The notes under the pieces: model-generated
Databases searched by the model: none
The model's input: only the letters and a program-made list of their open reading frames with translations
Told to the model about the DNA's origin: nothing
Shown here: piece by piece, positions 674 through 17,937 of the stretch
How the letters are laid out: each line of letters opens with the position of its first letter
Position numbering within the stretch: position 1 is the stretch's first letter
Made by a program: the position numbers and the translations under genes
NCBI GenBank assembly: GCA_963783885.1
Contig: CAWAPJ010000039.1
Location: 1 to 17,937, forward strand
Source: Waddliaceae bacterium
GTDB lineage: Bacteria > Chlamydiota > Chlamydiia > Chlamydiales > SLFE01
Direction: 5' to 3'
Length of the DNA stretch: 17,937 bases

Positions 674-925
674 TTAGGCAGCTTTTTTCGAAATTACAGA
701 ATATAAATAGGCTGGTGAAATGTCTGCACCGTTATCCCAAACGATTGTTCCAAGTTCTTGATTCACTTTTACTGTTTTGAAATACTTGTGATCTTTCAAT
801 TTTTCAAAGATACCTTTAAATGGGATAATCTCAGAGATATTCACCTCTCCTTCCAAGCCGTCATCGAAACGCACAAACAGCTTATATTCACCAACAACCT
901 TAACTTCTTGTACATCACGCAACAT
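674..925 (-). CDS. DUF2442-family protein, putative antitoxin
   Basis: 83 aa with family-typical pattern YKLFVRFDDG...GIFEKLKD...F...GTIVWDNGADISPAYLY; lies 3 nt downstream of the DUF4160 gene. Confidence 0.85.
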   Translation of the reverse strand: MLRDVQEVKVVGEYKLFVRFDDGLEGEVNISEIIPFKGIFEKLKDHKYFKTVKVNQELGTIVWDNGADISPAYLYSVISKKAA

Positions 926-928
926 GAT

Positions 929-1189
929 TTACTCCAGTGGAGGAATTTTTTTTAATTCGGCAAATTTCTCCGCCAATTGCCAGTCTTCTCTCAATTCTTC
1001 TTGATGGATACTTGCCCATTCGATGACTAATCCTAATACTTTGGGTGGCAATTTACCATCGAGTAAGGCTAAATCTTCGATTGAAATCGTAGCCTTATAC
1101 TCATTGTATCTCACGTGAAAATGAGGGGGATTATGATCTTTATAAAACATTGCGATCACTATTCCCAGAAAGCGGCTAATCTCAGGCAT
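929..1189 (-). CDS. DUF4160-family protein, putative type II toxin
   Basis: MPEISRFLGIVIAMFYKDHNPPHFHVRY...GKLP...VIEWASIHQEELREDW...IPPLE is the typical DUF4160 pattern; SD AGAGGA upstream. Confidence 0.88.
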   Translation of the reverse strand: MPEISRFLGIVIAMFYKDHNPPHFHVRYNEYKATISIEDLALLDGKLPPKVLGLVIEWASIHQEELREDWQLAEKFAELKKIPPLE

Positions 1190-1398: not shown

Positions 1399-4288
1399 TC
1401 AATCCGAAACTTCAATCCTCTCGAGCTTTTGAGCTGCCAGGTCGAAATGAGGCCACCGATGCCAAAGGGCGTAATCGCCGATAATGTAGAATCGCAGGCA
1501 TGCGCGAGTGACTGCGACGTTCAAGAGATTCGGCTTGCGGGTTGCCCACTCAAGAGCACCGAAAGTTGTCTGGTCTCCTCCAAGAACAAAAAAGACAGCT
1601 GATGCCTGTTTTCCTTGAAAAGAGTGCACGGTCCCAACAGCCTCTCCCACCCATGAACGGAGCGATGCATTGAATTTGACTTCGAAAAGCTTTTTTATGG
1701 TCTTTTCCCGCACGATGAGATGCTGGATTTGCCGCACCACTTCGCGGAAGGGGGAAATGACAAAAACATCGGGGGTGTTCATCTTGTTCAAGAGGCTGGT
1801 AAGTTGATGGATAAGAGCGGCTCCTTGAGCGGGAACGTATTGACGATCCGTGACATTTCCGGGAATGTCGTACCAGCAACTCTTCGGCAAGGAGCAAAGA
1901 AGGGATTCTGTAGCCAGCACCATGCTGTTTTCATAGGCGATCTCATTGGCAATAGAGAACATGGGTTCCATGCAGCGCCGATGGACCCTGAGAGGGGCCC
2001 CCAGCCAAAAGGAAACCTCCCCAACATGACGTGTCATTCCATATTTGGAAGCCGCATCCATCAGGTTTTGTACGGAAACTCGGGAAGGAGCCCAAGAAAG
2101 GAGGTGATCCTTAAGCCGAAGTTTAGCCATGCCATCGACAACTTCCGGGGGGATGGTGCAAATGGGTTCAATCTGGAAGGGATCGCCGATCGAAAGAACT
2201 CTTTTTGCCCTCCAGATCGCGCCGACAGCTGCCTGAGGCAGCGCTTGTCCGGCTTCGTCGATGAACACCCAGCCGAGGCTTTGAGGTTCTAAATATCTGA
2301 AGAGACGGGCCACGGAAGCAAACGTCGAAGAAAGGAGGGGGATAAGCAGAAAAACGCTCTGCCAGACAAGAAGGGTATCGCTTGCAGTTGTCGGATTTTT
2401 TCCTTGGAGAAGATTCGAGATAGCCATGAGATTCCCCCCGGAATCCTCCTCTCTGCCGGAGGGTTTCTGCGAGCCAGGCTTCATGAAGGGCTATGGCCGC
2501 GATAAATAATTCTGTACGGATATGGTTGAGCGCAGCCGTTTGATAAAATCCCTGTTTTTGATTTTCAGAGTCTTCAAGAGAGCCATCCGGTATGCGGGCA
2601 TCCCGGTGGGCTCTTTTTAACTTTTCATAAAAGTTTTTGCATATGTTTTCCCAAAGAGCATCATCGAGCAGCTCGAGCTCTTTAGCTTCTACGTTTTTGC
2701 GAAGCTCCTTCAGTTCTTCCTGAATTTTTTGAATATGCTCCTTGCGTGTATGGAGTTCGTCTATAGCGGCAATTTGCTTCCGTGCATACTGTCTGGACTG
2801 ATTAGACCATTCGTTCCAGCTTTTCTCTTTGGCCAGCCGCTTCCAGATTGCGGGACGCTGCTGATTCCAAAGTTCTACCTGCTTTTCGACAAGATCGAGA
2901 CGCATTTTGGCTTCTTCCTCTTCTTTTCGGAGCTCATCGAGCCCAGCTTCCCTGGCATCAGTTATCTTTTCTAACTCCAGCAGTTCGCTAAGCCCCTTGT
3001 CATGAAGAGATCCTGCTCTCCTTATCTCATCGTGCAGATAGGCGAGGTCATCAAGCGCATCTGCCAATGCCTCATGCCGGCGCTGAAGGGATAAAAACCG
3101 ATCCCTGGCTTCGGCGAATGAGGGGCCGCTATACTCGCCGGCCCAATCCCAAATTCGCTTTCCTTGCAGCTTGTCGTCGCGGCTGATAAAAACCCTATTG
3201 ACTAAGCGGCGGCAATTTTCCACATTGCCCAAGGCGGCGGAAATCAAACCCCACGCTTCATTTTTCTCAAGGTCAAGCAGCCTGCCGGCAACCGGCTCTA
3301 AATAGGATGTATGAGCATAGGCAGGGTCCAACTGCCTGCGGAGGGGTAGTTCATGCGAGAGATTTTGGACAGCCGTATTATTGGAGGAAACGACAACCAT
3401 TTCGTACCCAAGCAAAGAAGGATGAAGGGTACTGACATAGACAGGATCTCCCCCCTCGAAACCAACAGCGATTGTCCCTGTGAAGGCGGCTTTGGAGCGA
3501 GTAAACTGCGCGAGAGCCTCTGCTCTTGCTACGATATTCTCCGCGATAATCTCCCGAAGGAGGGTCGTCTTTCCTGTACCGGGGGGACCGTTGACCGAGA
3601 AAATGCCGCCCTCGGCGAGAGAACACATCGTTTGGTTGACGGCAAACTGCTGCATCAATGCCTGTTGATGGGACCTGCTTGCAGGCCAGCGGCCTTTTGG
3701 CAGCTTCTCAGGCTTCAGCGCTTCGAGAACCGCTGCCTCGCCCCTGTCTCCCTCTAGAAGGACCCGCTGCTTGCATTTTCTGCTCAAATAGAGATCAAGA
3801 GGGGTCCCTTTTTGGGAAAAAAGGGAAGCGCCGGCCCTTTCCAGATCTTGGATGTAGAAACTATTCAGGATGGGAACATTTTGTTCCGAATCAAATTTTG
3901 AATTTTTTGCCGTTCTTACCACTTCGCACGTTTCGATTAACGCGATCGGATAATCGAGGGGCTTAAAGCCCGCAAAACGGAAAAGAATCTCTACCAGATG
4001 GCTGATAGCTTTATGATCCAGAACACCTGCCTGTTCTTTAGGCAGGCGCACGACCCTTTTCGAAAGTGTTGTGATAAACTCTTCATCCAGATCTTTTAAG
4101 AGGCGCTGAACCGCTTTCCAATAATTTTCCATTGTGAGAAACGACGACTCCTGATTCAACAGGCGCCCGTGGGCCCAGGGCAAAGTCGAAAGGGAAAGAG
4201 TTCCCAAAAGCGGAGTGCCGAACTTCGTGACCGAAAGTTTGGCAAAGCAGCTCATCGTCGCATCTGAGCCGCACTGCCTCCAGCCCAC
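1399..4288 (-). pseudogene. Superfamily 1 helicase, DNA2/NAM7(UPF1)-like (AAA_11/AAA_12), frameshifted and probably 5'-truncated
   Basis: ORF 2168-4288 has Walker A GPPGTGKTT, motif Ia VVSSNNTAVQN and a coiled-coil insert. ORF 1399-2484 has DEAGQ, GDPFQIEP, HRRC, GTVHSFQGKQ and NVAVTRA. Removing one G from the G6 run (plus-strand C6 at 2434-2439) joins them as ...RGGFRG-NLMAISNLL..., about 960 aa. Confidence 0.85.
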
Positions 4289-4303: not shown

Positions 4304-4822
4304 CGGCTGCTCGGTTACATCAAACGCGACAAGAAAAATTTAAAAACCACTGAACGGGGCCGCTGTCTCGTCGCACTGATCCGGGATCCCTCCTTGAAAT
4401 CGGTGGAGCTGACCGGAGAGTGGGAAGCCAAACTGAAGTCGATCGAAGAGGGAAAGTTCTCTCCGGATACTTTCATGAAAGAAATCGCGCACTTCACACA
4501 CAGCATCCTTAAGACAAGCGACATCTTATCCGTTCAAGGAAATGCCCTGGGATTATGCCCTCTTTGCGAGAAGCCGATTATCGAAGGAAAAAAAGGTTAT
4601 GGATGCTCGGCGTGGAAGAGCGGCTGCAAATTCGTTCTTTGGAAAGACCAGCCTGGAATTCGTCTGCAGCCTGCGCAGGCGCGCTGCCTGCTGCAAAAAG
4701 GAATCCTTTTCACTCCTGAGGGCCGATCGATTCTGACCTTAAACAAAAAAGGCCGGCTCACAAAAATACCCATACCTAAGGTGAGAGCACGTGTGAAACC
4801 GAGCTCACAGAGTGACTGTTGA
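4304..4822 (+). pseudogene. topB: C-terminal fragment of DNA topoisomerase III (type IA)
   Basis: The frame extends upstream of the listed ORF: LLGYIKRDKKNLKTTERGRCLVALIRDPSLKSVELTGEWEAKLKSIEEG, followed by zinc ribbon CPLC...GYGCSAWKSGCKFVLWK. Toprim and catalytic Tyr regions are absent; in-frame stop at 4265-4267. Confidence 0.82.
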
Positions 4823-4868: not shown

Positions 4869-5603
4869 TTAGTAATAAGCTGAGGATCCTTCATATCTCG
4901 ACTTTTTTTCACATAAGGTTAAAATAATAATTCCCATCAAGGGATAAAATACGCATTGGAGTACCACCATCGAAATTGAAATATCAAATAATGATGTGCT
5001 ATTTCTAAGGTGTTCACCTAACCTTGTCGGTAAATAAAACGCTATCATTTGAATCCATGAAGGAAAAAATTCCGAGGCAAAGAATACGCCTGACAAAAAT
5101 AGAAGGCTGTTGTTAAGAATATTAACCAGCCAACCTGTGTCTTTCAAAATTAATGTAATTCCTGTTAAAGCAAACGATATACCCATCAACGACGGAAGAA
5201 TTCCAACCATGATTAAATATGTCGAGAGTGAAATTGTTTGAAAAGTCACAAAAAAATGGAGAATTTGCAGAACAAAAAGTATTGAAAAAACTCTTGTTAT
5301 GGCCGCAACAATTTTGGCTGCAAATAATTTTTTTAGAGAAAAAACAGACAGATAATTCTGTTCAAATGTTCCAAGATTCATCTCATTAGCAATTTTCCCT
5401 GATAAATCGCCAATGAGAACAATAGAAAAAAACCATATTGAATAGGAGTCAAATGAAAAACCCCGAGTTTCAGATAAAAAGGAGAGGTAATAATAAAATA
5501 CTGAAACTCCAATCAGTTCACCAAGCCATTGAAAACGATAGGAAAAGATTGTATAAATTTCCTTTTGAATTTCATTCATAATTAACCGTAGGAACAAGCT
5601 CAA
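4869..5603 (-). CDS. ABC-2 type exporter permease
   Basis: About 6 hydrophobic segments; NEMNLGTFEQNYLS and FLSGVFFASEFFPSWIQMIAFYLP are typical ABC-2 motifs. Starts 1 nt after the ATPase stop; an alternative ATG lies at 5579. Confidence 0.85.
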   Translation of the reverse strand: MSLFLRLIMNEIQKEIYTIFSYRFQWLGELIGVSVFYYYLSFLSETRGFSFDSYSIWFFSIVLIGDLSGKIANEMNLGTFEQNYLSVFSLKKLFAAKIVAAITRVFSILFVLQILHFFVTFQTISLSTYLIMVGILPSLMGISFALTGITLILKDTGWLVNILNNSLLFLSGVFFASEFFPSWIQMIAFYLPTRLGEHLRNSTSLFDISISMVVLQCVFYPLMGIIILTLCEKKSRYEGSSAYY

Positions 5604-5604
5604 T

Positions 5605-6234
5605 CTATTTCTCCAATGTTATGATCCTGGTGCAGGTTTGATTTATCCATTCATCGTCATGGGATGCTGCGATGATGAGTTTTTGGTTAGAACTTAGCAC
5701 TTTCAAATACTCGCTAAATGATATTTTCGAATTGACATCAAGTCCATTTGTCGGTTCATCCAAAAATAAAAACTTAGGATCATGGGCGAGTGAACAGCAA
5801 ATAGCTACTTTTCTCTTTGTTCCTAGTGATAGTTCCTCAACTCTATTGTTTATGTAATTTTTGATTCCAAAATAATCAAATAATCTGATTCCTTCTTTAA
5901 TCAGTGAGTTGGAAAACACCCCCTTTAAACCTGCAAAATATATGAAATTTTGAAGAGCAGTCAACCTCCAGTAAAGGTGGCGTGTACTATCGAAAAGAGT
6001 TCCGATATTTCCCATAAGGTTATTCCTTTCAAGCTGTATATCAGTGTTGTCATAATATATATGCCCTTTATCCGGAGCTAATATTCCACATAGAATTTTT
6101 AGAAATGTGGTTTTTCCCGAACCGTTCCTTCCGACAAATCCAATAATTTCCCCAGTTGAAAATCTATGGTTAGAATCAACAAGGATTTTCTTCCGATCAA
6201 ATGATTTTGAGACATTTTTTACTATTAAGGTCAT
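5605..6234 (-). CDS. ABC exporter ATP-binding protein
   Basis: Walker A GRNGSGKTT, signature LSLGTKRK, Walker B FLFLDEP, H-loop ASHD; TAATG overlap with the upstream gene. Confidence 0.95.
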   Translation of the reverse strand: MTLIVKNVSKSFDRKKILVDSNHRFSTGEIIGFVGRNGSGKTTFLKILCGILAPDKGHIYYDNTDIQLERNNLMGNIGTLFDSTRHLYWRLTALQNFIYFAGLKGVFSNSLIKEGIRLFDYFGIKNYINNRVEELSLGTKRKVAICCSLAHDPKFLFLDEPTNGLDVNSKISFSEYLKVLSSNQKLIIAASHDDEWINQTCTRIITLEK

Positions 6235-7055
6235 TAGATAATATTATTAAAATAATCAATAATCCTGTTTTGAAATCCTTCAATTTTAGAAGAATAATAG
6301 GGAATCGGTGAACTCATTCCAAAACAAATTGTTTTGCCGTTTACAAAGAAGAGAATCTCAAATATCCGATAAGAAAAAAGCTTTGCAATCTGAATGGAGT
6401 ATAGTTTAATTTTATTCGCTTGATCGCAAGTAAGTGAGAAACTTTTTTCACATTGATATATTCTGACATCCTTTCCAACTATAGATGAAACAACCGGCAC
6501 TCCATCCGGCTTAACAAATGCAAAGGAACTATCCTTTACTGAAGGGCGCCAATAGTAATAATTGTTTGGATTGGAGCAAACAAGTCTTGGATGATTAGTG
6601 TAATCAGCCAGGTTGCCGAGAAAGTATTCAGGGGTTGCCAACTTTGTTTTCAGTTTATGAATCATCTCCCATTGACGGGGGAGCGAATATCGATTTTCAT
6701 TTAACCCGAAGGCTCCAGGTTGTCCGAATGCTTTTGGAAATGCGGAGAGAGCAAACATGAGATAAGCGCGAAATTCGGATTTGGCATACTGTTGATCCTC
6801 ATGAACAAAATCAACAAATAACTCATCAGAAATTCCAAAAACTCTATTTATTAGATACGTGCTTTTGCAATTTTTGACGACTTTTCCATCTGGAAATTCC
6901 CATGAAACAGAAACACCTGATTCACTCACTTCGTCAAAAACTGATGCTTTGTCAAGGAAGTCACGAAGCGATATAGGATAGATATTTTGCAAACGATCCA
7001 ATAATGTCTTCGTGACTGGCTCATTTTTATGACTAAAAATTAGAATCGTACTCAT
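6234..7055 (-). CDS. Degenerate ATP-grasp-like protein (probable non-catalytic partner)
   Basis: N-terminal ILIFSHKNE strand, INR, and DQQYAKSEFRAYLMFAL...PG...SLPRQW...TPEY resemble the N-terminal half of RimK/graspetide synthetases. The FQE and E-x-N motifs are missing. ATGA overlap with the upstream gene. Confidence 0.55.
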   Translation of the reverse strand: MSTILIFSHKNEPVTKTLLDRLQNIYPISLRDFLDKASVFDEVSESGVSVSWEFPDGKVVKNCKSTYLINRVFGISDELFVDFVHEDQQYAKSEFRAYLMFALSAFPKAFGQPGAFGLNENRYSLPRQWEMIHKLKTKLATPEYFLGNLADYTNHPRLVCSNPNNYYYWRPSVKDSSFAFVKPDGVPVVSSIVGKDVRIYQCEKSFSLTCDQANKIKLYSIQIAKLFSYRIFEILFFVNGKTICFGMSSPIPYYSSKIEGFQNRIIDYFNNII

Positions 7056-7597
7056 CGATAGATGATATTTCCGTTTTCTACTTTACCGCATACTTGAGCA
7101 TGTTTTGAGACAATGACCTGTCCTCCTGGAACTTCAAAAGTAATATTTTTGTTTACTATAGTATTTCCGAGCAAATTAACGACTTGCGTCGAATTCGGAT
7201 TTTCTGTTTTTCGGATTAACAAACTATTGAGTTCGCAATCTTTAAAATTTGTATTCTCTGATGCAACACTCACTAATTCATTAAATTGACTGCCTCCTCC
7301 GGAAATTGAACCGTTTACTTTAGTCAAATTGACTTGCGTATTAGAGATGAATAATTGGCCATTTAAAACGACTTCTTCCACCGTGCTGTTGTGGAGGGCA
7401 AGTGAACCATTAACTGAAATGCTTTTCTTAATTGTACAATCATCTACAAGAATACTTCCATTACTATCTATTCGGTCAAGAGTTTCATTTTTATAGGTTT
7501 CTGAATATTGATAATTTGATTTCATAGAAGGTGCTCCACTTAGACCAATAAATGTTAGTATTAATAAAATAAAAAACTGTAATGAAATTTTGTTCAT
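7052..7597 (-). CDS. Secreted or membrane-anchored beta-helix (bactofilin-like) protein, 181 aa
   Basis: The likely start is ATG 7597, an ATGA overlap with the ATP-grasp stop, not 7699. Signal-like MNKISLQFFILLILTFIGLSG is followed by repeated xNGS/NGQ turns about 17 aa apart. Confidence 0.65.
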   Translation of the reverse strand: MNKISLQFFILLILTFIGLSGAPSMKSNYQYSETYKNETLDRIDSNGSILVDDCTIKKSISVNGSLALHNSTVEEVVLNGQLFISNTQVNLTKVNGSISGGGSQFNELVSVASENTNFKDCELNSLLIRKTENPNSTQVVNLLGNTIVNKNITFEVPGGQVIVSKHAQVCGKVENGNIIYR

Positions 7598-8439
7598 AAT
7601 ATATTTTCCTTTTTTTGTATAAGTGCTTTGATAAATGATTGAGTAAATTGGCTTCGGCTTGGATGATTGAAAGTGCTCCAGCCTGGCCCTGGATTGCATT
7701 CTAAGCAGAAGTATTTTTCACCTTGTTTGATAAAATCTATCCCAACGAATCGATTTTTCTCGATTGAAGCCAAGCTCTTACAAAACTTGTAAATACTTTC
7801 TGGTAATTTTGAAACGCAATATTCGATTGAACCTTTTGATGCATACCGGTAATCGATATGATCCTTTGAAGATACCTCAAGTGACCAACATTGGTTATCC
7901 AAAATGTGGACACGTTGATCGATTCCATTAACCCGTTCTTGAAAAAGAGTCGGTAGATATTGAAGATTATCCTTTTCCCAATCTTTATATTCTTTGCCTG
8001 TTGCCGCGATTGATCTCATGCTAGAGCATGACTTTGAAATTAGATCATCTTGAATTCGTTCATTTATCGCCTTAGCATCTCCCTTAATCAAATATGTTTT
8101 TGGAATTGTAACCGAAGAGCTTTTTGATTTGACCAAAGAGCGGATCGCTTGAAATGGCTTGGAAGAGTTTTGATAATGATCTCTTTTTTGTCCGATACTA
8201 TTACCTTTCCAAATATCCATAACCTCGAAAAATGCCATATGCTTATTGTAATAAGGATGGTCAACCACTACACCTGGATGCCTATGGTAAACGGAGATTG
8301 GGGATATTTCCGTATCTTTTGTAAAAAAGAGAAGATCGCCATTTCTGAAAATGAAGTCCCATGTATAACCTAATTCATCAAAATATAGATGCAGAACAGG
8401 TGCTGAGGAGATCGCTTCTGCATAGAATTTTTTTTGCAA
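7594..8439 (-). CDS. RimK-like ATP-grasp ligase (candidate RiPP maturase), main body; true N-terminus probably in the adjacent frame
   Basis: Motifs NSSKPFQ, IPKTYL, ISKSCSSMRS, PTLFQERVNGIDQRVH, IDYR, FVGIDFI and CLECNPGPGW (E-x-N metal-binding motif). The TTG start sits directly after an in-frame TAG and inside an A-run context. Confidence 0.88.
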   Translation of the reverse strand: MQKKFYAEAISSAPVLHLYFDELGYTWDFIFRNGDLLFFTKDTEISPISVYHRHPGVVVDHPYYNKHMAFFEVMDIWKGNSIGQKRDHYQNSSKPFQAIRSLVKSKSSSVTIPKTYLIKGDAKAINERIQDDLISKSCSSMRSIAATGKEYKDWEKDNLQYLPTLFQERVNGIDQRVHILDNQCWSLEVSSKDHIDYRYASKGSIEYCVSKLPESIYKFCKSLASIEKNRFVGIDFIKQGEKYFCLECNPGPGWSTFNHPSRSQFTQSFIKALIQKKENIL

Positions 8440-8584
8440 CTAAATCTTCCATGCTTGAAAGGATGACAATACTTTCATGAGTTTCTACATTGTCACCTTT
8501 TCTTAACTGAGGCATTTCAATGGTCTTCAATGTCGAACCAGGAACTGAAGGCCGAAATGATTTAGGAATAAAAGTTCTTTTCAT
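8378..8584 (-). CDS. 68-aa ORF; probably the frameshifted N-terminus of the ATP-grasp ligase and/or a leader-like peptide
   Basis: SIVILSSMEDLVAKK resembles the first beta-strand and helix of ATP-grasp maturases. Deleting one A from the A8 run (plus-strand T8, 8428-8435) gives ...EDLVAKKFYAEA..., a continuous 329-aa protein from 8584 to 7594. Confidence 0.55.
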   Translation of the reverse strand: MKRTFIPKSFRPSVPGSTLKTIEMPQLRKGDNVETHESIVILSSMEDLVAKKILCRSDLLSTCSASIF

Positions 8585-8587
8585 TCC

Positions 8588-8737
8588 CTAAAACTCAAAT
8601 ACGTCTTCTGCAGACTGTTCATTTGTGATAAGATCATCAAATTCGAATGTTGAAATAAATCCAGTATCTTCTGAACCGTCTTTTCCACCTTCTTTTTCGT
8701 CTGACCCACCTTCTTTTCCATCGCTAGAATATCCCAT
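8588..8737 (-). CDS. Candidate RiPP precursor peptide (49 aa), absent from the ORF track
   Basis: My translation: MGYSSDGKEGGSDEKEGGKDGSEDTGFISTFEFDDLITNEQSAEDVFEF*. Strong SD TAAGGAG 6 nt upstream; first gene of the ATP-grasp/ABC operon. Confidence 0.75.
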   Translation of the reverse strand: MGYSSDGKEGGSDEKEGGKDGSEDTGFISTFEFDDLITNEQSAEDVFEF

Positions 8738-8743
8738 TTTTTT

Positions 8744-8750
8744 CTCCTTA
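8744..8750 (-). promoter_or_regulatory. Shine-Dalgarno site of the precursor ORF
   Basis: Minus strand reads TAAGGAG-AAAAAA-ATG. Confidence 0.75.
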
Positions 8751-9021
8751 GGGTTTTTTTAGTTATGAAAAATTAGCAGACGAATCTTTTTTTTGTCCAT
8801 ACCTTATGCAGTCTGATGTGATTTTTTTTGGTTATCAAATTCTTGGAGGGTACGCTGTTTTCATTTCAAACACAACTTTTGACAATATCTCGGAGGGCTG
8901 TCAGGAGTATCTGCTCAGTATTGTTGTTCTTAGTTTGGAATAGGTTGAGTTAACAATCAGCTCAACCATTTTCGCTCTCACTTTAGACAAGAATTTTCTA
9001 AGGGAGTGATTCATGTAGATA

Positions 9022-11226
9022 TCAGTACACAGAAAACAACTGTCCCACAGATATTCCTCCATCGTTTGGAGGAATATCTTCATGCCAAAAGACTTCATAG
9101 CCGTCTTGAGTCAATTTTTTGATTGCTTTTTCTGTAAGAATTTTATTTTGGAACACCCCACCGGTAAGGATAACTTGTTTTTGTCCTGAAACTTCGCAAA
9201 CTGCGAGGATCATTTCCACTAAAGTGTTATGGAATTTGGCCGCAGTTTTGTTTTGGGGTTCTGTGATGATCTGTCTGATCATCGGCTCCCAATCGATGAT
9301 GCCATTGTTTCTACCGAATTGAAATGGGTAAGCTTCGTCGGTTTCCGGCTCTTCGCTTAAAAACTCCAGCTCCATGGCTGCCTGTCCTTCATAGGTGATT
9401 GTCTGGCGAAGTCCGATAAGGGAGGCAATTGCGTCGAACAGTCGTCCTGCGCTGGAACATCGAGGCGTTTGAAACCCTCTTAAGAGAAGGGTTTTTAAAT
9501 TGTTCCGTTCGGAATTTGAGAGAGTTTGAATGGGAAAGAGATTGGTTTTTTCAAAAAGCTCTTCTCCAAAAATTTCATACAGCAGCCCGATAGCGGAAAG
9601 GCGGGGTTCATTGACGGCTCTTTCTCCGCAGGGGAGAAGAAACGGGCGAAGATGGGCAATTCTTGTTGATACGAGATCTTTGCCAATTAGAAAAAACTCG
9701 CCGCCCCAAACTGTTTGATCGAGACCATATCCGGTGCCGTCGAAGGAGACTCCGAGTAGAGGAGGCGTCAGTTTGTGTTCGGCCATGCAGGAGTAAACAT
9801 GGGCGGCGTGATGCTGGCAGTGGATAAGAGGCTTTCCCATTTTGGAGGCAAACATTGTGGAGAAGTAGGCTGGATGGCAGTCGGCGATCACAACTTCCGG
9901 TTCAATATTGTAAAAACTGAGTAGAGAGTTGATTTCTTTGGAAAAACTGTTCATAGCCTTTTGGGTTTCAAGATTTCCGATATGCTGGCTGATGGTGATC
10001 GTTTTTCCTCTTGCCGCCGCGACGGTATTTTTCATATGCCCGCCCACTGCAACGGAGGGGGGAAGCTCGCGGTCAATTGTCAGTGGAATCGACGAGTAGC
10101 CCCTGGCACGCCTGAGAATCATTTTGCGTCCAGCAACTTCCCGGACGATAGAATCATCCACAGCGTGGGCGATGGGGCGGTCGTGAACGAGAAAAAAGTC
10201 GGCGATCCCTTTAAGGTCCGAGAGGGCTTCTACGTTATCAATGCAGATCGGCTCATTCGACTTGTTGCCGCTGGTAGCGATGACAGGGAAGTTCAATTCG
10301 CTTAGCAATAAATGATGAAGTGGGGAGTAGGGGAGCATAATCCCTAATAGATTTGATGATTTTCCTTTAAGCAAAACGATTGGAGCCTGCGGCGATGTAA
10401 GAAGATTTTCTTCAGTTTCCGAGACATGGCAATAGGTTTTGACCTGCTGCATGGAGGGAAACATGAGGGCAAAAGGTTTCTCGGGCCTTTGCTTCCTTTG
10501 CCTTAAGGTTTCAATGCTTTGGTTGTTTGCGATGAGTTGAAACCCGCCGATTCCTTTTAAGGCCAGAATGGACCCTCGTCGAATTTGCTCTAAGGCCATT
10601 TGGAGTGCTTCTTCTTTTGAGGCAAGATGAGTGCCTTCGGAATCGAGCAGGGCAAGCTGAGGGCCGCACTCTGGGCAGGCGTTAGGCTGGGCATGAAACC
10701 TTCTGTCGGCGGGGTCGTCGTATTCCGCACGGCATGCTTGGCACATGGTAAATTTTTTCATGGTCGTGCAGCTTCTGTCATAGGGGAGCTTTTCGATGAT
10801 GCTGAACCTGGGCCCGCAGTCGGTGCAGTTGGTGAAGGGGTAGTGGAAGCGGCGGTTTTTTGGATCGGTGATATCTTTGAGGCACTCTTTGCACGTGGCA
10901 AGGTCGGGAAGAACAATCGTATCGGGCGTGGAGGCTTTATCGCTTTTTTTGATAGCGAATCCATTTTCATTGATCGGTTCTAGAAACGAAATTTCGATAT
11001 CGTCAATCGAGGCGTTTTTGGGTTTCGTCGTTTGGAGAAGGTGAGCAAAGTCATCGAGACTCCTCGCCTTTCCCTCTGCCTCGATGACAACTCCCTCATT
11101 GGAATTGACTATCCATCCGGCTATGCCCAATTTTTTAGCGAGGTTATAGATGAAGGGACGGAAGCCGACACCTTGAACAATGCCTTTTACAACTAACCGC
11201 TTTCTTTGAACATTGCTTTTTGCCAT
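9022..11226 (-). CDS. hypF: [NiFe]-hydrogenase maturation carbamoyltransferase HypF
   Basis: Acylphosphatase GIVQGVGFRPF; zinc fingers CKEC...CTDCGPR and CQAC...CPECGP; KGIGGFQL; QHHAAH; DGTGYG; PPNDGGISVGQ. Confidence 0.97.
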   Translation of the reverse strand: MAKSNVQRKRLVVKGIVQGVGFRPFIYNLAKKLGIAGWIVNSNEGVVIEAEGKARSLDDFAHLLQTTKPKNASIDDIEISFLEPINENGFAIKKSDKASTPDTIVLPDLATCKECLKDITDPKNRRFHYPFTNCTDCGPRFSIIEKLPYDRSCTTMKKFTMCQACRAEYDDPADRRFHAQPNACPECGPQLALLDSEGTHLASKEEALQMALEQIRRGSILALKGIGGFQLIANNQSIETLRQRKQRPEKPFALMFPSMQQVKTYCHVSETEENLLTSPQAPIVLLKGKSSNLLGIMLPYSPLHHLLLSELNFPVIATSGNKSNEPICIDNVEALSDLKGIADFFLVHDRPIAHAVDDSIVREVAGRKMILRRARGYSSIPLTIDRELPPSVAVGGHMKNTVAAARGKTITISQHIGNLETQKAMNSFSKEINSLLSFYNIEPEVVIADCHPAYFSTMFASKMGKPLIHCQHHAAHVYSCMAEHKLTPPLLGVSFDGTGYGLDQTVWGGEFFLIGKDLVSTRIAHLRPFLLPCGERAVNEPRLSAIGLLYEIFGEELFEKTNLFPIQTLSNSERNNLKTLLLRGFQTPRCSSAGRLFDAIASLIGLRQTITYEGQAAMELEFLSEEPETDEAYPFQFGRNNGIIDWEPMIRQIITEPQNKTAAKFHNTLVEMILAVCEVSGQKQVILTGGVFQNKILTEKAIKKLTQDGYEVFWHEDIPPNDGGISVGQLFSVY

Positions 11227-11456: not shown

Positions 11457-12815
11457 ATGAATGCCATTAAAAGATTTTTTCTCACTCAAAAACCCCCTGA
11501 ATTGGGAAGTTTTAACACTATCCCCAATGAGTTGATTTTGCATATCGCAAGCTACCTACCCGCATGGCAGGATAGACTATCTTTTTCCCATGTCTGCAAA
11601 ACATTCCGGCATTGCCTCCCTATTGACCAAAGATATATTCGATTCTGCCAAATGCTCTCAAAAGACGCTCGAGTTAAAGAAATCGTGCTTCCTCCAAAAC
11701 GCAGATTTTTTCACTCGCAAGAAACACATGAAATATTCGTCCCTGAATTCGGAATCGATAAAAAAGATATACATTACTTTACCATTTTTGATGATGACCT
11801 TAAAAGCAGACAGACTGTTTTCAAATCTTACACCTTTAAACAATACATTGAACAGCTAGTCCAACAAGGAATTTTAAATACGTATATAAACCAACTGACA
11901 ACAACACATGAGGGAAAAACCTTATTGAGAAGCCACGTCGTTTTTTCAACTAAAGATAGTATTTTTTATTTAGATAGAGAGTTGTCCGAGGCCCATATCC
12001 TCGCCCGAGGATGCTTTCTTTACAATTCACGAATTCGATACCGATACGATAGATTAAACCAGAAACTCTACATCTTCAATAAACCGACGGATGCCACAGT
12101 TCTGACAATCTATAAAGAAGTGCGTCACGGCTTCAAACTTCTACAGAAGATCTCGTTCACTGAAGATCTAAACATAGGCTGGTTCAAAGTCGATCAAAAA
12201 CTCAATAAAATCTTTATTCACTGCAACATAACTCAAAATTCCTTAAAACTCCTGGAATTGAAACAAGATGTATATAAATTTAGGGATCTGATTAAATATC
12301 ACATATTCGATACTCTTAAATGTTTTTATGATGATAAGAACCATTGGCTGATTGCCATAGAAAAAAACTATCTCAGAGTTATCAATGGATCGAGTGAAGA
12401 CATCTTATATTCCACAACGATGACGCATCTCGCAAAAGGAGAGCATTTAGTTAATTTTTATGACCAGACTACCTGTAAACTCTTCACAGCCGTGAAAAAA
12501 AGAGATGAGCATAGTAAACCGTGGAAAGAAGTTAACTTAGAGATTTGGGACATAGCCAGCGGTAAACGGATTAGGAGCTTCTCGCTTTGGAAAGGTGACC
12601 ACGCTCCCCAACGAATCGATTATGACCCTGAAATAAATATCGTTATGATTCAATCGAAGAAAAAAATAACATTCTGGGATCCTGAAACCGGCAAGCGGGT
12701 AACTGACAAAGAATTCCCCTACGATCAGGTTGTTTGGGATAAAGAGCAGATGAAACTCATTTATCTGGAATGCGGGAAAACCCATGTTCTAGGCTTTAGG
12801 CAAGACGCTCACTAG
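11457..12815 (+). CDS. F-box domain protein with probable beta-propeller (WD40-like) C-terminus; candidate secreted effector
   Basis: F-box FNTIPNELILHIASYLP...RLSFSHVCKTFR; C-terminal blade-like motifs LEIWDIASGKRI, ITFWDPETGKRV and recurring YD/WD. Confidence 0.8.
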   Translation: MNAIKRFFLTQKPPELGSFNTIPNELILHIASYLPAWQDRLSFSHVCKTFRHCLPIDQRYIRFCQMLSKDARVKEIVLPPKRRFFHSQETHEIFVPEFGIDKKDIHYFTIFDDDLKSRQTVFKSYTFKQYIEQLVQQGILNTYINQLTTTHEGKTLLRSHVVFSTKDSIFYLDRELSEAHILARGCFLYNSRIRYRYDRLNQKLYIFNKPTDATVLTIYKEVRHGFKLLQKISFTEDLNIGWFKVDQKLNKIFIHCNITQNSLKLLELKQDVYKFRDLIKYHIFDTLKCFYDDKNHWLIAIEKNYLRVINGSSEDILYSTTMTHLAKGEHLVNFYDQTTCKLFTAVKKRDEHSKPWKEVNLEIWDIASGKRIRSFSLWKGDHAPQRIDYDPEINIVMIQSKKKITFWDPETGKRVTDKEFPYDQVVWDKEQMKLIYLECGKTHVLGFRQDAH

Positions 12816-13270: not shown

Positions 13271-13534
13271 TCAAGCTTCAATTTCGACGCTCTCGAGCAT
13301 CACGCTTTGGGCATGGGGGGCGTTTTCGTCTTTGTCCTCGATAATTTCAAGCTGGGCGCCTTCGGCGGCGGTTCCGAGGGAAAATGTGTCGAAGTGGTCG
13401 CGAAAGTGAGGGGCCGAAAGATGGGAGTGGGCCCCCAGCTTGATCTTCATTTTTACAATTCTTTTGCCGTCGTTTTCTTCGGAAAGCGAAGCGATTTTCG
13501 CGAGCAGGTCTTTAAATAAACTCATTTCATGCAT
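13271..13534 (-). CDS. hypA: Short HypA/HybF-family nickel metallochaperone (87 aa)
   Basis: MHEMSL N-terminal Ni motif (true start ATG 13534), KLG..S, GTAAEGAQLEI, and a LESVEIE C-terminus; overlaps the protease stop. Confidence 0.85.
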   Translation of the reverse strand: MHEMSLFKDLLAKIASLSEENDGKRIVKMKIKLGAHSHLSAPHFRDHFDTFSLGTAAEGAQLEIIEDKDENAPHAQSVMLESVEIEA

Positions 13535-13986
13535 TGCAGGATGTCCTCTTCTATTGTTTTGCAAATGTTTGGCAGTTTTTCTTTTAGGTTGTCAGAGATG
13601 TCCTCTTCAAGAGAAAAATGATCGGACTCGATACCATAGAGGATAAATTGTTCGGGAAAGTTTCCCAGGGCTTGCCCGAGCTCGATCACTTCAGAGACGT
13701 CCATAAGGTGGGTGGATGAGCGGGAAAAAACGGCAGGTATTTTTTTCTGAAGAGGCTCGAAGCGGTGAAGGAAGCCGGTTTCTTTTTCACCCGAAAATAT
13801 GGCGTCGATCAGAAATACGGACTTTCGATCTTTCCATATGTCAAGCAGATTGATTGTATTGCCGCGGCAGTAGACGAAATCTGCTGAGGAATTTAAGTTT
13901 TTTTCGAGAGCGCTTGCGATTTCAAGGCCGACGGCGTCGTCGCCTCTTAATGGGTTTCCGAGACCTATGATTAGGGGCTTTCTCAT
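13522..13986 (-). CDS. Hydrogenase maturation endopeptidase (HycI/HybD/HoxW family)
   Basis: [23 protein letters not shown] and LYGIE motifs. True start is ATG 13986, an ATGA overlap with the large-subunit stop. Confidence 0.93.
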
Positions 13987-15284
13987 GATCGTTTCACTTT
14001 GAGTTTTAAAAAGTGGGCCGAGCAGGAGATGCAGGGATCGTGGTTTCGGATGAGCTGCTCGCATTTTGTGGTCAGCGCCTTTTCGCTTTGGTCGATATGG
14101 TCGACTAAATAGTTGTGCAAATCCTCTTCAATGGTTTTTTGATTTTGGGATGTTGGGGGGACAATCGAGGCAAACCGGATTGTGCCGTCTTTTTCGATTT
14201 CATAGTGATGGTAAAGGAGTCCGCGGGGCGCTTCTGTGGCGCCGTAGCCGACGCTTTCTTTCGGTTCTATGGGATAGGCGGATTCTTCAGGTTTTTCATA
14301 TTGGTCGATAATCCGGAGCGCCTCGTCGAAGGCAAAAAGCACTTCGAGGCTTCTGACGATGATGCTTTGAAAGGGGTTTTTGCAAATTTTAGGAAAGCCG
14401 ATCTCTTTTGCCGTTTCTTTGACGATGGGGGGTAAATTTTGATAGTTGAGGGCGTAGCGGGCCATAGGTCCGGTAAAGTAGGAGCCGCGCTCTTTGATCC
14501 GCGATTGCAGGGCGTTGGAATAGTCGACCTGATATTCCTCAAAATGGTTTTCAAAGTCTTCGGGAGAAATGTTAATTCCTTTTGTGGATTGAATCTCCCC
14601 GACATCCATGGGGTAATACTCAGGGTGGGCGAGCGAAACGAATTCATAGTCCTTTTCAAAATCGGGAAAATCAAATCCAGAGACCCATTTGACCGTTTCA
14701 ACGGCGGCGTCGCGGGCCCATTTGAGCTCGTCAGTCAGGCTTAGCAGATCTTTTTTTTCGGGTACTTTGTAAAACCCGCCAACTTTGACGTTGATCGGAT
14801 GGATTTCCCTTCCGCCCATGAGAGCCACTATGCTATTGCCCGCTTTTTTGAGGCGAAGGCCTCTTTTCACTTCTTCGGGATATTTTTGCGCCATTTTGAT
14901 GGCATCGGGAAAGCCGAGAAAGTCGGGGGCGTGGAGCAGGTGGATATGCAAACCGTGGCTCTCTATCCACTCGCCGCAATAGACCAGCCTCCTGAGCTTG
15001 GCAAGCTGTCCTTCGACAGTGATGCCAAGGGCGTTTTCCATGGCGTGGACGGAGCTCATCTGATAGGCGATGGGACAAATGCCGCAGATGCGGGCAGTGA
15101 TGTCGGGCGCTTCGCGGAAATCGCGCCCTCGAAGGAGGGCTTCGAAAAATCTCGGAGGCTCAAAGATTTTTAGTTTCACATCTTTAACTTTGTCCTCTTC
15201 GATTTCGACATAAAGGGCTCCTTCTCCTTCAACGCGGGCGAGATAGTTGACATTGATCGTTTTAGTGCGGGATTTATTTTTCAT
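13983..15284 (-). CDS. Group 3b-type (sulfhydrogenase) [NiFe]-hydrogenase large/alpha subunit, 433 aa
   Basis: ARVEGEG, EPPRFFE, L1 RICGIC, GGREIHP, EAPRG, L2 DPCISCSAH and a short cleavable tail. Start is ATG 15284. Confidence 0.95.
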
Positions 15285-16047
15285 GCTTGACACTTTCCGA
15301 TTTGAAGGGTTCCATCCAGGCGTAGAATTTTCGGTATTTGCGGACGAGCTCCCGTTCGGAAACACCCATTTTAATCGAGAACCAGCTGCTTAAAGAGTCG
15401 GTATGTGCGTGTTCTTTCGGGCCGTAGCAGCCGTAGCATCCGCGATTGTAGGTGGGGCAGAGGGCGTCGCACCCTGCGTGGGTGACCGGTCCCAGGCATG
15501 GGGTGCCGTGGGCCACCATGACGCAGACATTGCCTTTCTGCTTGCATTCCATGCAAACGCTTTTGTTGGGAACGTTGGGGCGTTTGCCGAGCAAAAAAGA
15601 GGAGATCACTTCAATAAGCTGGGTTTTATTGATCGGACATCCCTGCAGCTGGAAATCTACTCTGACGTGGTGGGAAATCGGCGTCGATTTGTCGAGAGTG
15701 TCGATGTATTCTGGGCTGGCGTAGACGATTGAGAGGTATTCTTTGACATCCTTGAAATTTTTCAGAGCCTGTATTCCGCCGGCAGTTGCGCAGGCGCCGA
15801 TAGTGACCAGGTATTTGGAGGCGGCTCTGATTTTTTGAATGCGCTCTTTGTCATGCTCGGTGGTGATCGACCCTTCGACAAGAGAGAGGTCATAGGGTCC
15901 CTCGATTTCGGTTTCTGTGGCCTCGCGGAAATAGGCCACTTCGAGCTTCTCGGCAATCGGAAGGAGCTCGTCTTCGCAGTCGAGGACGGTCAGCTGGCAT
16001 CCGTCGCAAGAAGCAAATTTCCACACGGCAAGCTTTGGTTTCATCAT
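15274..16047 (-). CDS. Group 3b-type [NiFe]-hydrogenase small/delta subunit
   Basis: [31 protein letters not shown]...C...[20 protein letters not shown]. Confidence 0.94.
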
Positions 16048-16098
16048 ACCTCAGTTTGTAACCTATTTTTATCTTTAGCGCCATAGATTCCGGTTAGA

Positions 16099-16157
16099 TT
16101 TTGGTGATTTCTTTGAAGCTAAAGGTTGAAGCCTTTAGCAATATGAAATCACCAAAA
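16099..16157. repeat. Intergenic hairpin between gamma and delta subunit genes
   Basis: TTTTGGTGATTTC (16099-16111) pairs with GAAATCACCAAAA (16145-16157); inner GCTAAAGG (16118-16125) pairs with CCTTTAGC (16132-16139). Confidence 0.7.
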
Positions 16158-16178
16158 GCTGTGGATGATATACTGATG

Positions 16179-17009
16179 TCAGATTTCCTTTTTAGCAAAG
16201 AATGGTTTTACTTTCTCATAGGGTAAAATCGAACCATCCTTGCAGATAAAGTTTGAGAGATACTGGCATCTGCCGCAATGGCCGATGGCGCATTTCATGT
16301 TCCTCTCCATGGCAAGATAAATATCGCTGGCGTCTATCTCTTTTTGGAGGAGCTCGCCTGCGGAAAAGCGGAGCATGATCTCCGGTCCGCATAATAGGGC
16401 CGTCGAGTTTTTTAGGGAAAAGGGAATATGGGAAATGAGCTTTGTCACAACGCCCACATTGCCTTTCCAATTTTCGTTTGCGACGTCGACAGTGATGTAG
16501 ACGCGTCCGCCAAGCTGCTCTTTCCATTGTTTGAGCTCCTCCATAAAAACGATATCAGCAGGCTCTCTCGCTCCATATAAGAGGGCGATCTCACCGTAGT
16601 CTTTTCGATAATTGAGGAGGTGGTGGATCATCGGGCGGAGAGGGGCAATGCCAATACCTCCTGCGATCAGGACAACGTTTTTATTTTTGCAACTTTCGAT
16701 CGGCCAGCTCGACCCAAAAGGGCCCCTGATGCCAACTTGCTGTCCCACATCGAGGCGGGAGAGTGCCCGCGTGACATTGCCAACAATTTTGATTGTGTGC
16801 CGATAGCATTTATCATTTTTGACATCGCTTGAAATCGAGATCGGGATATCTCCGATGCCGAAAGCGTAAAGCATATTGAATTGTCCGGGTGAAAACAGCA
16901 GTTTTTTCCCCGGAGGAGGACGAAGCTCTAAAGTAAACGTATCTTTGGTTTCGTATTTTTTTTCGGTGATCCGAAAAAATTCCGGTTGTAAGTTATCGAG
17001 AGTTTGCAT
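16179..17009 (-). CDS. Group 3b-type hydrogenase gamma subunit (FAD/NAD(P)-binding, 2Fe-2S)
   Basis: PGQFNML, PISISS, RGPFG, AGGIGIAP, CGPEIM, ERNMKCAIGHCGRCQ...ICKDG. Confidence 0.92.
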   Translation of the reverse strand: MQTLDNLQPEFFRITEKKYETKDTFTLELRPPPGKKLLFSPGQFNMLYAFGIGDIPISISSDVKNDKCYRHTIKIVGNVTRALSRLDVGQQVGIRGPFGSSWPIESCKNKNVVLIAGGIGIAPLRPMIHHLLNYRKDYGEIALLYGAREPADIVFMEELKQWKEQLGGRVYITVDVANENWKGNVGVVTKLISHIPFSLKNSTALLCGPEIMLRFSAGELLQKEIDASDIYLAMERNMKCAIGHCGRCQYLSNFICKDGSILPYEKVKPFFAKKEI

Positions 17010-17301: not shown

Positions 17302-17937
17302 ATGATCTCCTTATGGGGCAAATCCTCACACAAATACCGGTATCAAATCCCTCCTAATCAAGAAGATTTAATCTTGGAGCTGCCTGATGAACTTTATTAT
17401 AAAATTTTTACTTATTTATTAACACCAAGGGAGCTCGCGACAACAGCTTTGGTTTGCCGTCGGTGGAACACTCTTTCTGAAGATCCGAGATTTTGGAAAG
17501 TTATGTTTAAGAATCTCCCCTCAGTACAAAATCCTAGAGAAACAGCAAGAGTTTTTTACGGTCAATTTCCCAAAGAGCTAATGAAAGCGTTTCCATTTCA
17601 AAAAAACCTGGTAAACATCCCTATCTTATCCCCCAAAGAATCGGCAAACATAGAAAATAAAATAGGGGAGCTTCGTTTTTGTACTTTGAATTTTAATCGT
17701 AAGTGGGCGATATGGCAAGACAAGAATCAGCTGATTCACATGGGTATCAGATCTTATTCTCCTGAATATCGTGATTTACAGCAATCGCTAGATAGGGACA
17801 CCCTTAAAACCACAATTGAGTTTGTCCATTATCCCGAATCTCATTACTTTTTACACATCTTTCAATATAAGACCCCATCAGAATGGAAATATAGGACCTA
17901 TAACTACAAAGGAAAAACACCCGCATCCAACTACCTT
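17302..17937 (+). CDS. F-box domain protein, partial (runs off the window end; absent from the ORF track)
   Basis: My translation is open for 212 codons: MISLWGKSSH...ILELPDELYYKIFTYLLTPRELATTALVCRRWNTLSEDPRFWK, a canonical F-box. Confidence 0.88.
   Translation, partial: MISLWGKSSHKYRYQIPPNQEDLILELPDELYYKIFTYLLTPRELATTALVCRRWNTLSEDPRFWKVMFKNLPSVQNPRETARVFYGQFPKELMKAFPFQKNLVNIPILSPKESANIENKIGELRFCTLNFNRKWAIWQDKNQLIHMGIRSYSPEYRDLQQSLDRDTLKTTIEFVHYPESHYFLHIFQYKTPSEWKYRTYNYKGKTPASNYL

Follow-up and report, generated by a model that had tools for sequence, protein, structure and literature searches.

The stretch of DNA analyzed here (the window) is the whole of contig CAWAPJ010000039.1, 17,937 nucleotides (nt) long, from a Waddliaceae bacterium (GenBank assembly GCA_963783885.1), whose 2.16-Mb genome lies in 46 contigs and is estimated to be 89% complete. 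It carries a six-gene operon that is probably a horizontally mobile element of environmental chlamydiae encoding a new graspetide-like pathway, in which a peptide of ribosomal origin that is modified after translation (a RiPP) and has an N-terminal core would be made by an ATP-grasp ligase acting with a pseudo-enzyme partner. Six co-oriented, tightly packed open reading frames (ORFs) were called on the minus strand (8737..4869), in the order short peptide, ATP-grasp ligase, secreted beta-solenoid protein, second ligase-like protein (hereafter the partner), ATP-binding cassette (ABC) ATPase, and ABC-2-type permease. The junctions along the operon are a 3-nt gap, ATGA, ATGA, TAATG, and a 1-nt gap. 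This gene order, the strand, and the junction types had all been given in a preliminary description made from the sequence, and were borne out by the ORF calls. Its degenerate ATP-grasp, secreted beta-helix, and ABC ATPase assignments were each confirmed by family searches or structure models, and the peptidase gene that it reported missing was likewise not found within the six-gene block.

The operon is not a chance run of ORFs, since its gene order recurs in relatives and the changes in its peptide ORF are mostly synonymous. Relatives of the window genes were found in metagenome-assembled genomes (MAGs) of Parachlamydiaceae and Waddliaceae, which identifies the source as an environmental chlamydia. 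The role of the operon as a modified-peptide pathway is supported by two computational checks that could have gone against it and did not: a conserved small peptide is encoded upstream of related ligases, and the ligase does not group with housekeeping RimK or LysX.

Proposed precursor peptide and ligase

A peptide ORF lies 5' of the ligase in 16 of the 16 sources that include the 5' end of the ligase gene plus at least 150 nt of flank, and a variant form was found at three loci with other gene orders (L022, L031, and L032). Over codons 2-22, 677 synonymous and 214 non-synonymous codon-pair differences were counted across 13 distinct loci, and by these codons the N-terminal part of the peptide is under purifying selection. 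Residues S4, S5, D6, G7, K8, G11, S12, D13, K15, E16, D20, and D24 are unchanged at all 13 loci; the codons at these positions vary, with G7 and S12 each using four.

A database search with the peptide returned 55 relatives at E ≤ 0.01, 46 of which have a canonical start and at least 43 residues; 45 of these are unique. Among the unique sequences, residues 1-20 follow the pattern MG[FW]SSDGKEGGSDGKEG[CSG]KD with at most three exceptions per position. Ten residues (S4, S5, D6, K8, E9, S12, D13, K15, E16, and D20) are invariant in 45/45, K19 is kept in 44/45, and D24 in 43/45. The last four residues follow [VI]FxF (VFEF in the window), with F at -3 in 44/45 and F at -1 in 43/45, and the roughly 18 residues between the N-terminal block and this ending vary freely. 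The most deviant peptide belongs to a visibly decayed operon (L006). No second copy of the peptide was found in the genome.

In four relatives (P0274, P0297, P0298, and P0299), 10-30 residues ending in ...EI[FY]FG precede the invariant block. Judged by its sequence, this extension may represent a leader that is cleaved ahead of the conserved Gly. The L022 peptide also carries an N-terminal extension, of 17 residues. Two other ideas about the peptide termini were dropped. N-myristoylation of the MG start was rejected as neither the aromatic third residue nor the Asp at position 6 suits the motif, and mimicry of the C-termini of outer-membrane proteins by the C-terminal aromatic-x-Phe was not retained.

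The ligase gave a sub-threshold match to ATP-grasp_3 and nothing else in Pfam. Its top NCBIfam matches were graspetide maturases (TIGR04187, 7.2e-10; MvdC, 1.6e-7; grasp-with-spasm, 2.7e-7), and its matches to alpha-L-glutamate ligases were weaker (CofF, 1.4e-4; MptN, 7e-3). Searched as a single sequence against PDB sequences, it matched PsnB (3.1e-5) and also MdnB and AMdnB; a profile built from 13 relatives matched PsnB (1e-8), AMdnB (1.4e-4), and MdnB (0.018), with nothing else relevant and no RimK or LysX structure at E ≤ 1. The RimK family model (TIGR00768) gave no ligase match at E ≤ 0.1 in hmmscan, and a search of the whole genome with rimK_fam at E ≤ 1e-5 found three other places and not this locus.

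About 50 ligase relatives were collected (325-345 amino acids (aa), 41-60% identity). An alignment of 43 relatives shows no change at two Lys, Q, R/H, D-Y-R-Y, D, and E-x-N, and the window ligase retains every family-invariant residue in the alignment. Opposite its IDYRY stand IDFRQ in PsnB and VDWRR in MdnB. This 'DFR' motif is described as critical in graspetide synthetases in the part of PMC13097080 available to us. Outside the family, the closest proteins (actinobacterial and others) are 27-33% identical to the ligase and get their best scores on TIGR04187 (1e-33 to 4e-40), still below its cut-off. Taken together, the profile, PDB, motif, and cut-off results place the ligase family as a distant outlier of the graspetide ligases, outside every curated family. 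By its alignments, the window ligase is of graspetide type with an active site that is intact apart from a frameshift described below.

The ligase could instead tail the peptide with amino acids or another amine, as RimK does on S6 and LysX on LysW, with the peptide as the tailed product or a carrier. The glutamate-ligase matches, the about equal scores of an intact relative (P0016) on MptN and MvdC, and the small, acidic, LysW-like peptide would suit such a role, which is nonetheless improbable given that rimK_fam misses the locus, that RimK and LysX structures are absent from the profile matches, that the D-aromatic-R motif is retained, and that the peptide ends in Phe and not in an acidic residue. 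Furthermore, a downstream carrier-pathway enzyme is found in none of the four gene architectures described below.

The partner and the other operon proteins

The partner protein matched no Pfam or NCBIfam family, and a profile of 62 partner relatives found nothing relevant among PDB sequences. Its AlphaFold model was of high quality (predicted local distance difference test (pLDDT) 97.5; predicted template-modeling score 0.92). Foldseek matched this model to MdnC (5ig9; 7.7e-11, TM 0.71), CdnC (7mgv; 1.5e-10), AMdnB (7m4s; 1.9e-10), PsnB (7drm; 5.2e-9), and PruB (9bou; 1.2e-8), and more weakly to RimK (7qys; 1.7e-7). The partner is accordingly modeled with an ATP-grasp fold, and its relationship to ATP-grasp proteins is visible in the predicted fold alone, not in sequence.

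Near-invariant residues among 62-63 partner relatives are W, D, E, Y, L, Q, W, P, W, P, G, P, L, F, and F. ATP-grasp enzymes bind ATP and Mg in their C-terminal half; in the partner, this half holds only the near-invariant W, P, G, P, L, F, and F, with no Lys, Asp, Glu, Asn, or Arg among them. Because an ATP-grasp fold is here predicted together with a lack of conserved catalytic-type residues, the partner is read as a catalytically dead pseudo-enzyme. An exhaustive search collected 176 cluster representatives of the partner at E ≤ 0.001, and one relative was met in a Psychromonas MAG. In the ESM Atlas, clusters with 73-199 members, of Pseudomonadota and Actinomycetota origin, resemble the partner (score 0.96-0.97), which is taken as a lead only. 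The partner family probably extends beyond the chlamydiae.

Three lines of evidence tie the partner to the ligase. First, three proteins of 590-612 aa from metagenome contigs (P0168, P0170, and P0177) consist of an N-terminal partner domain and a C-terminal RimK-like ATP-grasp domain; in P0170, the C-terminal half shows 30% identity to the ligase family (E 2e-36) and includes DYRY and ESN..PGW. Second, of 400 sampled genomes of the phylum, 9 carry the ligase and 8 the partner; at least one of the two occurs in 10 genomes, and both occur together in 7. The three unpaired genomes are one in which the ligase is split by an insertion sequence (IS) element (G044), one in which the ligase match covers 216 of 332 model positions in a fragmented 100-contig assembly (G079), and one in which the partner lies at a contig start (G346). 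Third, a predicted ligase-partner complex scored 0.91, against 0.39 for the best of three controls; the mark applied to this score is reached by 116 of 157 solved complexes and by 2 of 215 mismatched pairs. The complex runs had 97% or more of their contacts in common, and the pLDDT of the partner was at least 91. On the ligase side, the predicted interface comprises the family-specific N-terminus (residues 2-5, 9, and 12) and the HNxSKxYQ motif; on the partner side, it comprises the near-invariant D91, E98, and Y102. Binding of the ligase and the partner to each other is supported by these predictions.

The 181-aa protein between the ligase and partner genes aligns with 17 relatives and has a hydrophobic, signal-peptide-like segment at the N-terminus and NG pairs every ~16 residues. 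It was modeled as a beta-solenoid (pLDDT 88.1, low in the first 30 residues only). Foldseek gave no match to this model at E ≤ 0.001, and AlbG and MfpA were among its weak rows. In a wide structural search, generic solenoids (pertactin, pectate lyases, and autotransporters) were recovered at Z 10-13 and the bactofilin BacA (2n3d) at Z 10.6 (root-mean-square deviation 2.2, 97/103 residues, 22% identity). The Pfam Bactofilin family (PF04519) weakly matches 10 of 18 solenoid relatives (best 0.0033); the window protein has no Pfam match at E ≤ 1, PF04519 included. The modeled fold is compatible with a bactofilin, yet pertactin and pectate lyase reach equal or better scores (Z 12-13), so the protein cannot be assigned to a family.

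The ATPase matches PF00005 (ABC_tran) with 95.6 bits against a cut-off of 25 and is DrrA-like (2.7e-37, below cut-off). The permease is weakly DrrB-like (TIGR00025, 4.5e-4, below cut-off).

Gene orders, proposed pathway, and known systems

The 10 sources whose sequence extends to the permease (L001, L002, L005, L007, L008, L013, L014, L016, L019, and the window) share one order, peptide, ligase, solenoid, partner, ATPase, and permease, and most shorter loci keep it as far as they go. Exceptions in order or integrity are an operon in fragments (L006), a partner in two ORFs (L016), the lack of a partner within 330 nt after the solenoid (L018), ligase remnants (L023 and L026), and a 44-aa remnant (L025). 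Three loci have variant orders (L022, L031, and L032; Table 1). Their peptides differ. Each ends in an aromatic-x-Phe motif and has, close to its N-terminus, a block rich in Lys, Asp, Glu, and Gly, which follows MG immediately in L031 and L032 and comes after the 17-residue extension in L022. Peptide, ligase, and partner are the constant core of the four gene orders.

These variant orders bear on whether the small protein is the substrate at all. It could be a regulator or secreted factor, with a small molecule, the beta-solenoid, or the envelope as the target of the ligase pair. We consider this very improbable: the peptide accompanies both ligases in every architecture, its invariant residues are of precisely the kinds (Lys/Ser and Asp/Glu) between which such ligases form links, the solenoid does not lie between the ligases in L031, and another secreted protein takes its place in L022. 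What speaks for this alternative is that modification of the peptide is itself deduced, that neither the beta-solenoid nor the exporter has an assigned role, and that the invariant block could serve a purpose other than cross-linking.

The operon is also patchily distributed. It is absent from a genome of the same genus. Its guanine-cytosine (GC) content is 0.349, against 0.448 for the genome, which ranks it among the lowest 1.4% of 2-kb windows. The L007 copy is flanked by an integrase and an AbiEii gene. The G044 copy (L033) has been destroyed by two DDE transposases, one of which cuts the ligase, and its peptide is one SDGKEGG repeat short. The low GC content, absence within the genus, integrase and AbiEii flanks, and decay fit a mobile, often-lost island that is patchy in the sampled phylum.

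In the graspetide-like pathway that we favor, the 46-49-aa peptide would be bound by a heterodimer of the active ligase and its dead paralogue. The active subunit would use ATP to activate (phosphorylate) Asp/Glu side chains in the SSDGKEGGSDGKEG-x-KD...D block, and these would be joined to Lys, perhaps to Ser, or to the N-terminal Gly amine that becomes free when Met is removed, so that side-chain rings of lactam or ester type would form. Lactams are slightly favored because the distant L022 peptide keeps the Lys and Asp/Glu and not the Ser. The variable C-terminal part ending in [VI]FxF would then serve as a follower or recognition tail in place of an N-terminal leader. The ABC-2-type pump may move the product across the inner membrane. 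The secreted beta-solenoid could act in binding, immunity, or as a scaffold. The chemical steps, the export, and the roles of the two peptide halves are all inferred from the genes.

The 20-residue block is almost invariant although the ligases are just 41-60% identical, which suggests that the product has a constrained target. A fuller proposal would make this a natural graspetide class with an obligate live-plus-dead ATP-grasp heterodimer, a leaderless N-terminal core, and a C-terminal [VI]FxF follower, in which the Gly/Lys/Asp/Glu/Ser block has been frozen across chlamydial families as a caged product (possibly closed via the N-terminal Gly amine) that hits a conserved host or competitor target. 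Its product would be the first RiPP to be defined in chlamydiae. In this complete form, the proposal is rather doubtful.

Known systems share parts of this layout. The microviridin (MdnA/MdnB/MdnC), plesiocin (PsnA/PsnB), and chryseoviridin (CdnC) systems likewise encode an ATP-grasp ligase that shares this fold and carries the D-aromatic-R motif, next to a short precursor in which Lys/Ser and Asp/Glu abound. Unlike these, the chlamydial ligase is far under the curated family cut-offs, the conserved block is N-terminal with no leader in the main type, the ligase is paired with a dead paralogue as an obligatory neighbor, the operon has a secreted beta-solenoid and an ABC-2 pump and no peptidase or peptidase-containing ABC transporter (PCAT), and the hosts are chlamydiae. 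RimK and LysX/LysW are similar in that ATP-grasp chemistry is applied to carboxylates of a small acidic protein (a prediction in the chlamydial case) and in the weaker fold match of the partner model to RimK given above, and differ in that the chlamydial locus has no rimK_fam match, a non-acidic peptide end, and no pathway enzymes. Bactofilins and the pentapeptide-repeat immunity proteins AlbG and MfpA are right-handed beta-solenoids, as the chlamydial protein is in its model; unlike them, it has a signal-peptide-like N-terminus and no Pfam match at the threshold given above.

Partner-dependent graspetide synthesis was first reported in 2026, for rosaritide MirB-MirC, according to the accessible part of PMC13097080. 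The chlamydial synthetase may similarly need a co-encoded, strictly co-occurring, non-catalytic partner. However, MirC is described there as SurA/PpiC-like and of chaperone type, whereas the chlamydial partner is a degenerate ATP-grasp paralogue that is sometimes fused to the ligase.

No literature was found that links graspetides or ATP-grasp RiPPs to chlamydiae or to a pseudo-ATP-grasp partner. Chlamydial RiPP gene clusters appeared just as generic antiSMASH 'RiPP-like' counts (PMC9666466, in the portion available), and the word 'Chlamydia' is absent from the main text of PMC8939145. No chlamydial names occur in the searched part of the supplements of PMC13097080, in which the family may sit under an accession.

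If the graspetide-like reading is correct, the operon would define a new graspetide group with a pseudo-enzyme paralogue as a required partner; the partner in the earlier case is unrelated (PMC13097080, accessible part). The core would lie at the extreme N-terminus and be recognized from the C-terminal side, where C-terminal leaders are known to date as a device of engineering (PMC13003496, as far as its accessible text goes). The group would also be marked by a secreted beta-solenoid, and its product would be a defined ribosomal natural product of environmental chlamydiae, which live inside eukaryotic hosts.

Several results weigh against this reading. The ligase falls far short of the curated cut-offs (38.6 of 350 bits for TIGR04187, 30.8 of 425 for TIGR04185, and 30.2 of 230 for TIGR04192), and the intact relative P0016 reaches just 20 bits on MvdC and 19 on MptN. 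The hhalign alignment of the partner with the ligase that sets L/G/S opposite the Mg-ligand D/E/N has a probability of only 1.3% and is no more than a hint. Solved graspetide ligases have the same fold and are homodimers, so the high score of the predicted complex may reflect this likeness. The exporter is generic, the operon lacks a peptidase gene, and the beta-solenoid has no explained role. The usual layout of N-terminal leader and C-terminal core is not seen in the main type, as its invariant block opens at residue 2 and the variation lies toward the C-terminus; a C-terminal leader is termed engineered and 'unnatural' for graspetides in the accessible part of PMC13003496. Finally, decayed copies occur in L006, L016, L023, L026, and G044, and the ligase of the window itself is frame-shifted.

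Frameshift, gene coordinates, and contig surroundings

A 68-aa ORF (MKRTFIPKSFRPSVPGS..., ...IVILSSMEDLVAKK) aligns with the N-termini of the 325-345-aa ligase relatives, and the 281-aa ORF continues the alignment. The two frames join in a run of eight A on the coding strand (A8). Contigs from metagenome runs of four studies, one on soil and three on salt marsh, contain pieces of the stretch 7000-9000 at 99% identity or higher. The A8 run is covered without gaps by two of these contigs (from two salt-marsh studies). They were not counted as bridging because they extend just 10-11 letters on one side; 31 letters were required, and no contig bridges the A8 run by this rule. The best-covering run gave no cover at the site.

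The contig has a second split gene, an SF1 helicase (AAA_11/AAA_12) that is also in two overlapping frames, with the change near a run of six C. This split is compatible with homopolymer sequencing errors and with real decay alike.

If the A8 run is not a sequencing error, the frame-shifted ligase may leave the window copy without activity. The frameshift also lowers the value of this particular window. Whether the frameshift is real, so that this operon is a decaying, non-functional remnant and its product is not made, is slightly short of an even call. Real decay would be consistent with the split in the A8 run, with the same run length in two gap-free contigs of other runs (10-11 letters on one side), with the split helicase on the same contig, and with the other copies that are plainly decayed or struck by IS elements, whereas the intact family-invariant ligase residues, the five remaining whole operon genes, the position of both splits at or near homopolymers, as with sequencing errors, and the lack of a bridging contig under the 31-letter criterion all argue against it.

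Table 1. Coordinates of the operon genes, neighboring features of the window, and related loci
Feature	Sequence	Position	Strand	Evidence or content
Precursor peptide gene, 49 aa	window	8588-8737	-	ORF; AAGGAG 7 nt 5' of start
ATP-grasp ligase, N-terminal frame, 68 aa	window	8378-8584	-	homology to N-termini of full-length relatives
ATP-grasp ligase, main frame, 281 aa	window	7594-8439	-	all family-invariant residues in this frame
Frameshift site, A8 on coding strand (T8 on + strand)	window	8428-8435		meeting point of ligase frames
Secreted right-handed beta-solenoid protein, 181 aa from MNKISL...	window	7052-7597	-	alignment and model
Putative pseudo-ATP-grasp partner protein, 273 aa	window	6234-7055	-	fold match, fusions, predicted complex
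ABC transporter ATPase, 209 aa	window	5605-6234	-	PF00005 match
ABC-2/DrrB-like membrane permease, 244 aa	window	4869-5603	-	weak TIGR00025 match; kept beside ATPase
SF1 helicase, two overlapping frames	window	1399-2484 and 2168-4288	-	AAA_11/AAA_12
C6 run near helicase frame change	window	2434-2439		
Topoisomerase III relic, 142-aa ORF	window	4394-4822	+	C-terminal part only (~569-670 of 863)
DUF4160 and DUF2442 small-gene pair	window	674-1189	-	
F-box protein	window	11457-12815	+	F-box-like 5.1e-7; weak beta-propeller match
F-box protein	window	17302-17937	+	F-box-like 8e-15
HypF maturation gene and NiFe-hydrogenase set	window	9022-11226 and 13522-17009	-	
Variant operon	L022	1490-5813	+	peptide, partner, fused ABC, different secreted protein, ligase
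Variant operon	L031	635-3778	+	peptide, class I S-adenosylmethionine (SAM) methyltransferase, ligase, partner
Variant operon	L032	842-3913	-	partner, class I SAM methyltransferase, solenoid-like protein, two peptides, ligase
Destroyed operon of G044	L033	C1:240500-247500		two DDE transposases

A scan for promoters and terminators gave counts near chance. The 3' end of the operon adjoins the truncated relic of DNA topoisomerase III. On the other side, the NiFe-hydrogenase set comprises a HycI-type protease, the large subunit, the small subunit, and an NAD-binding Fe-S subunit, and the GC content of this region (~0.5) is above the genome mean. The two F-box proteins are eukaryote-like, which fits a symbiont of eukaryotic hosts, and the DUF4160 and DUF2442 pair lies near the opposite end of the contig.

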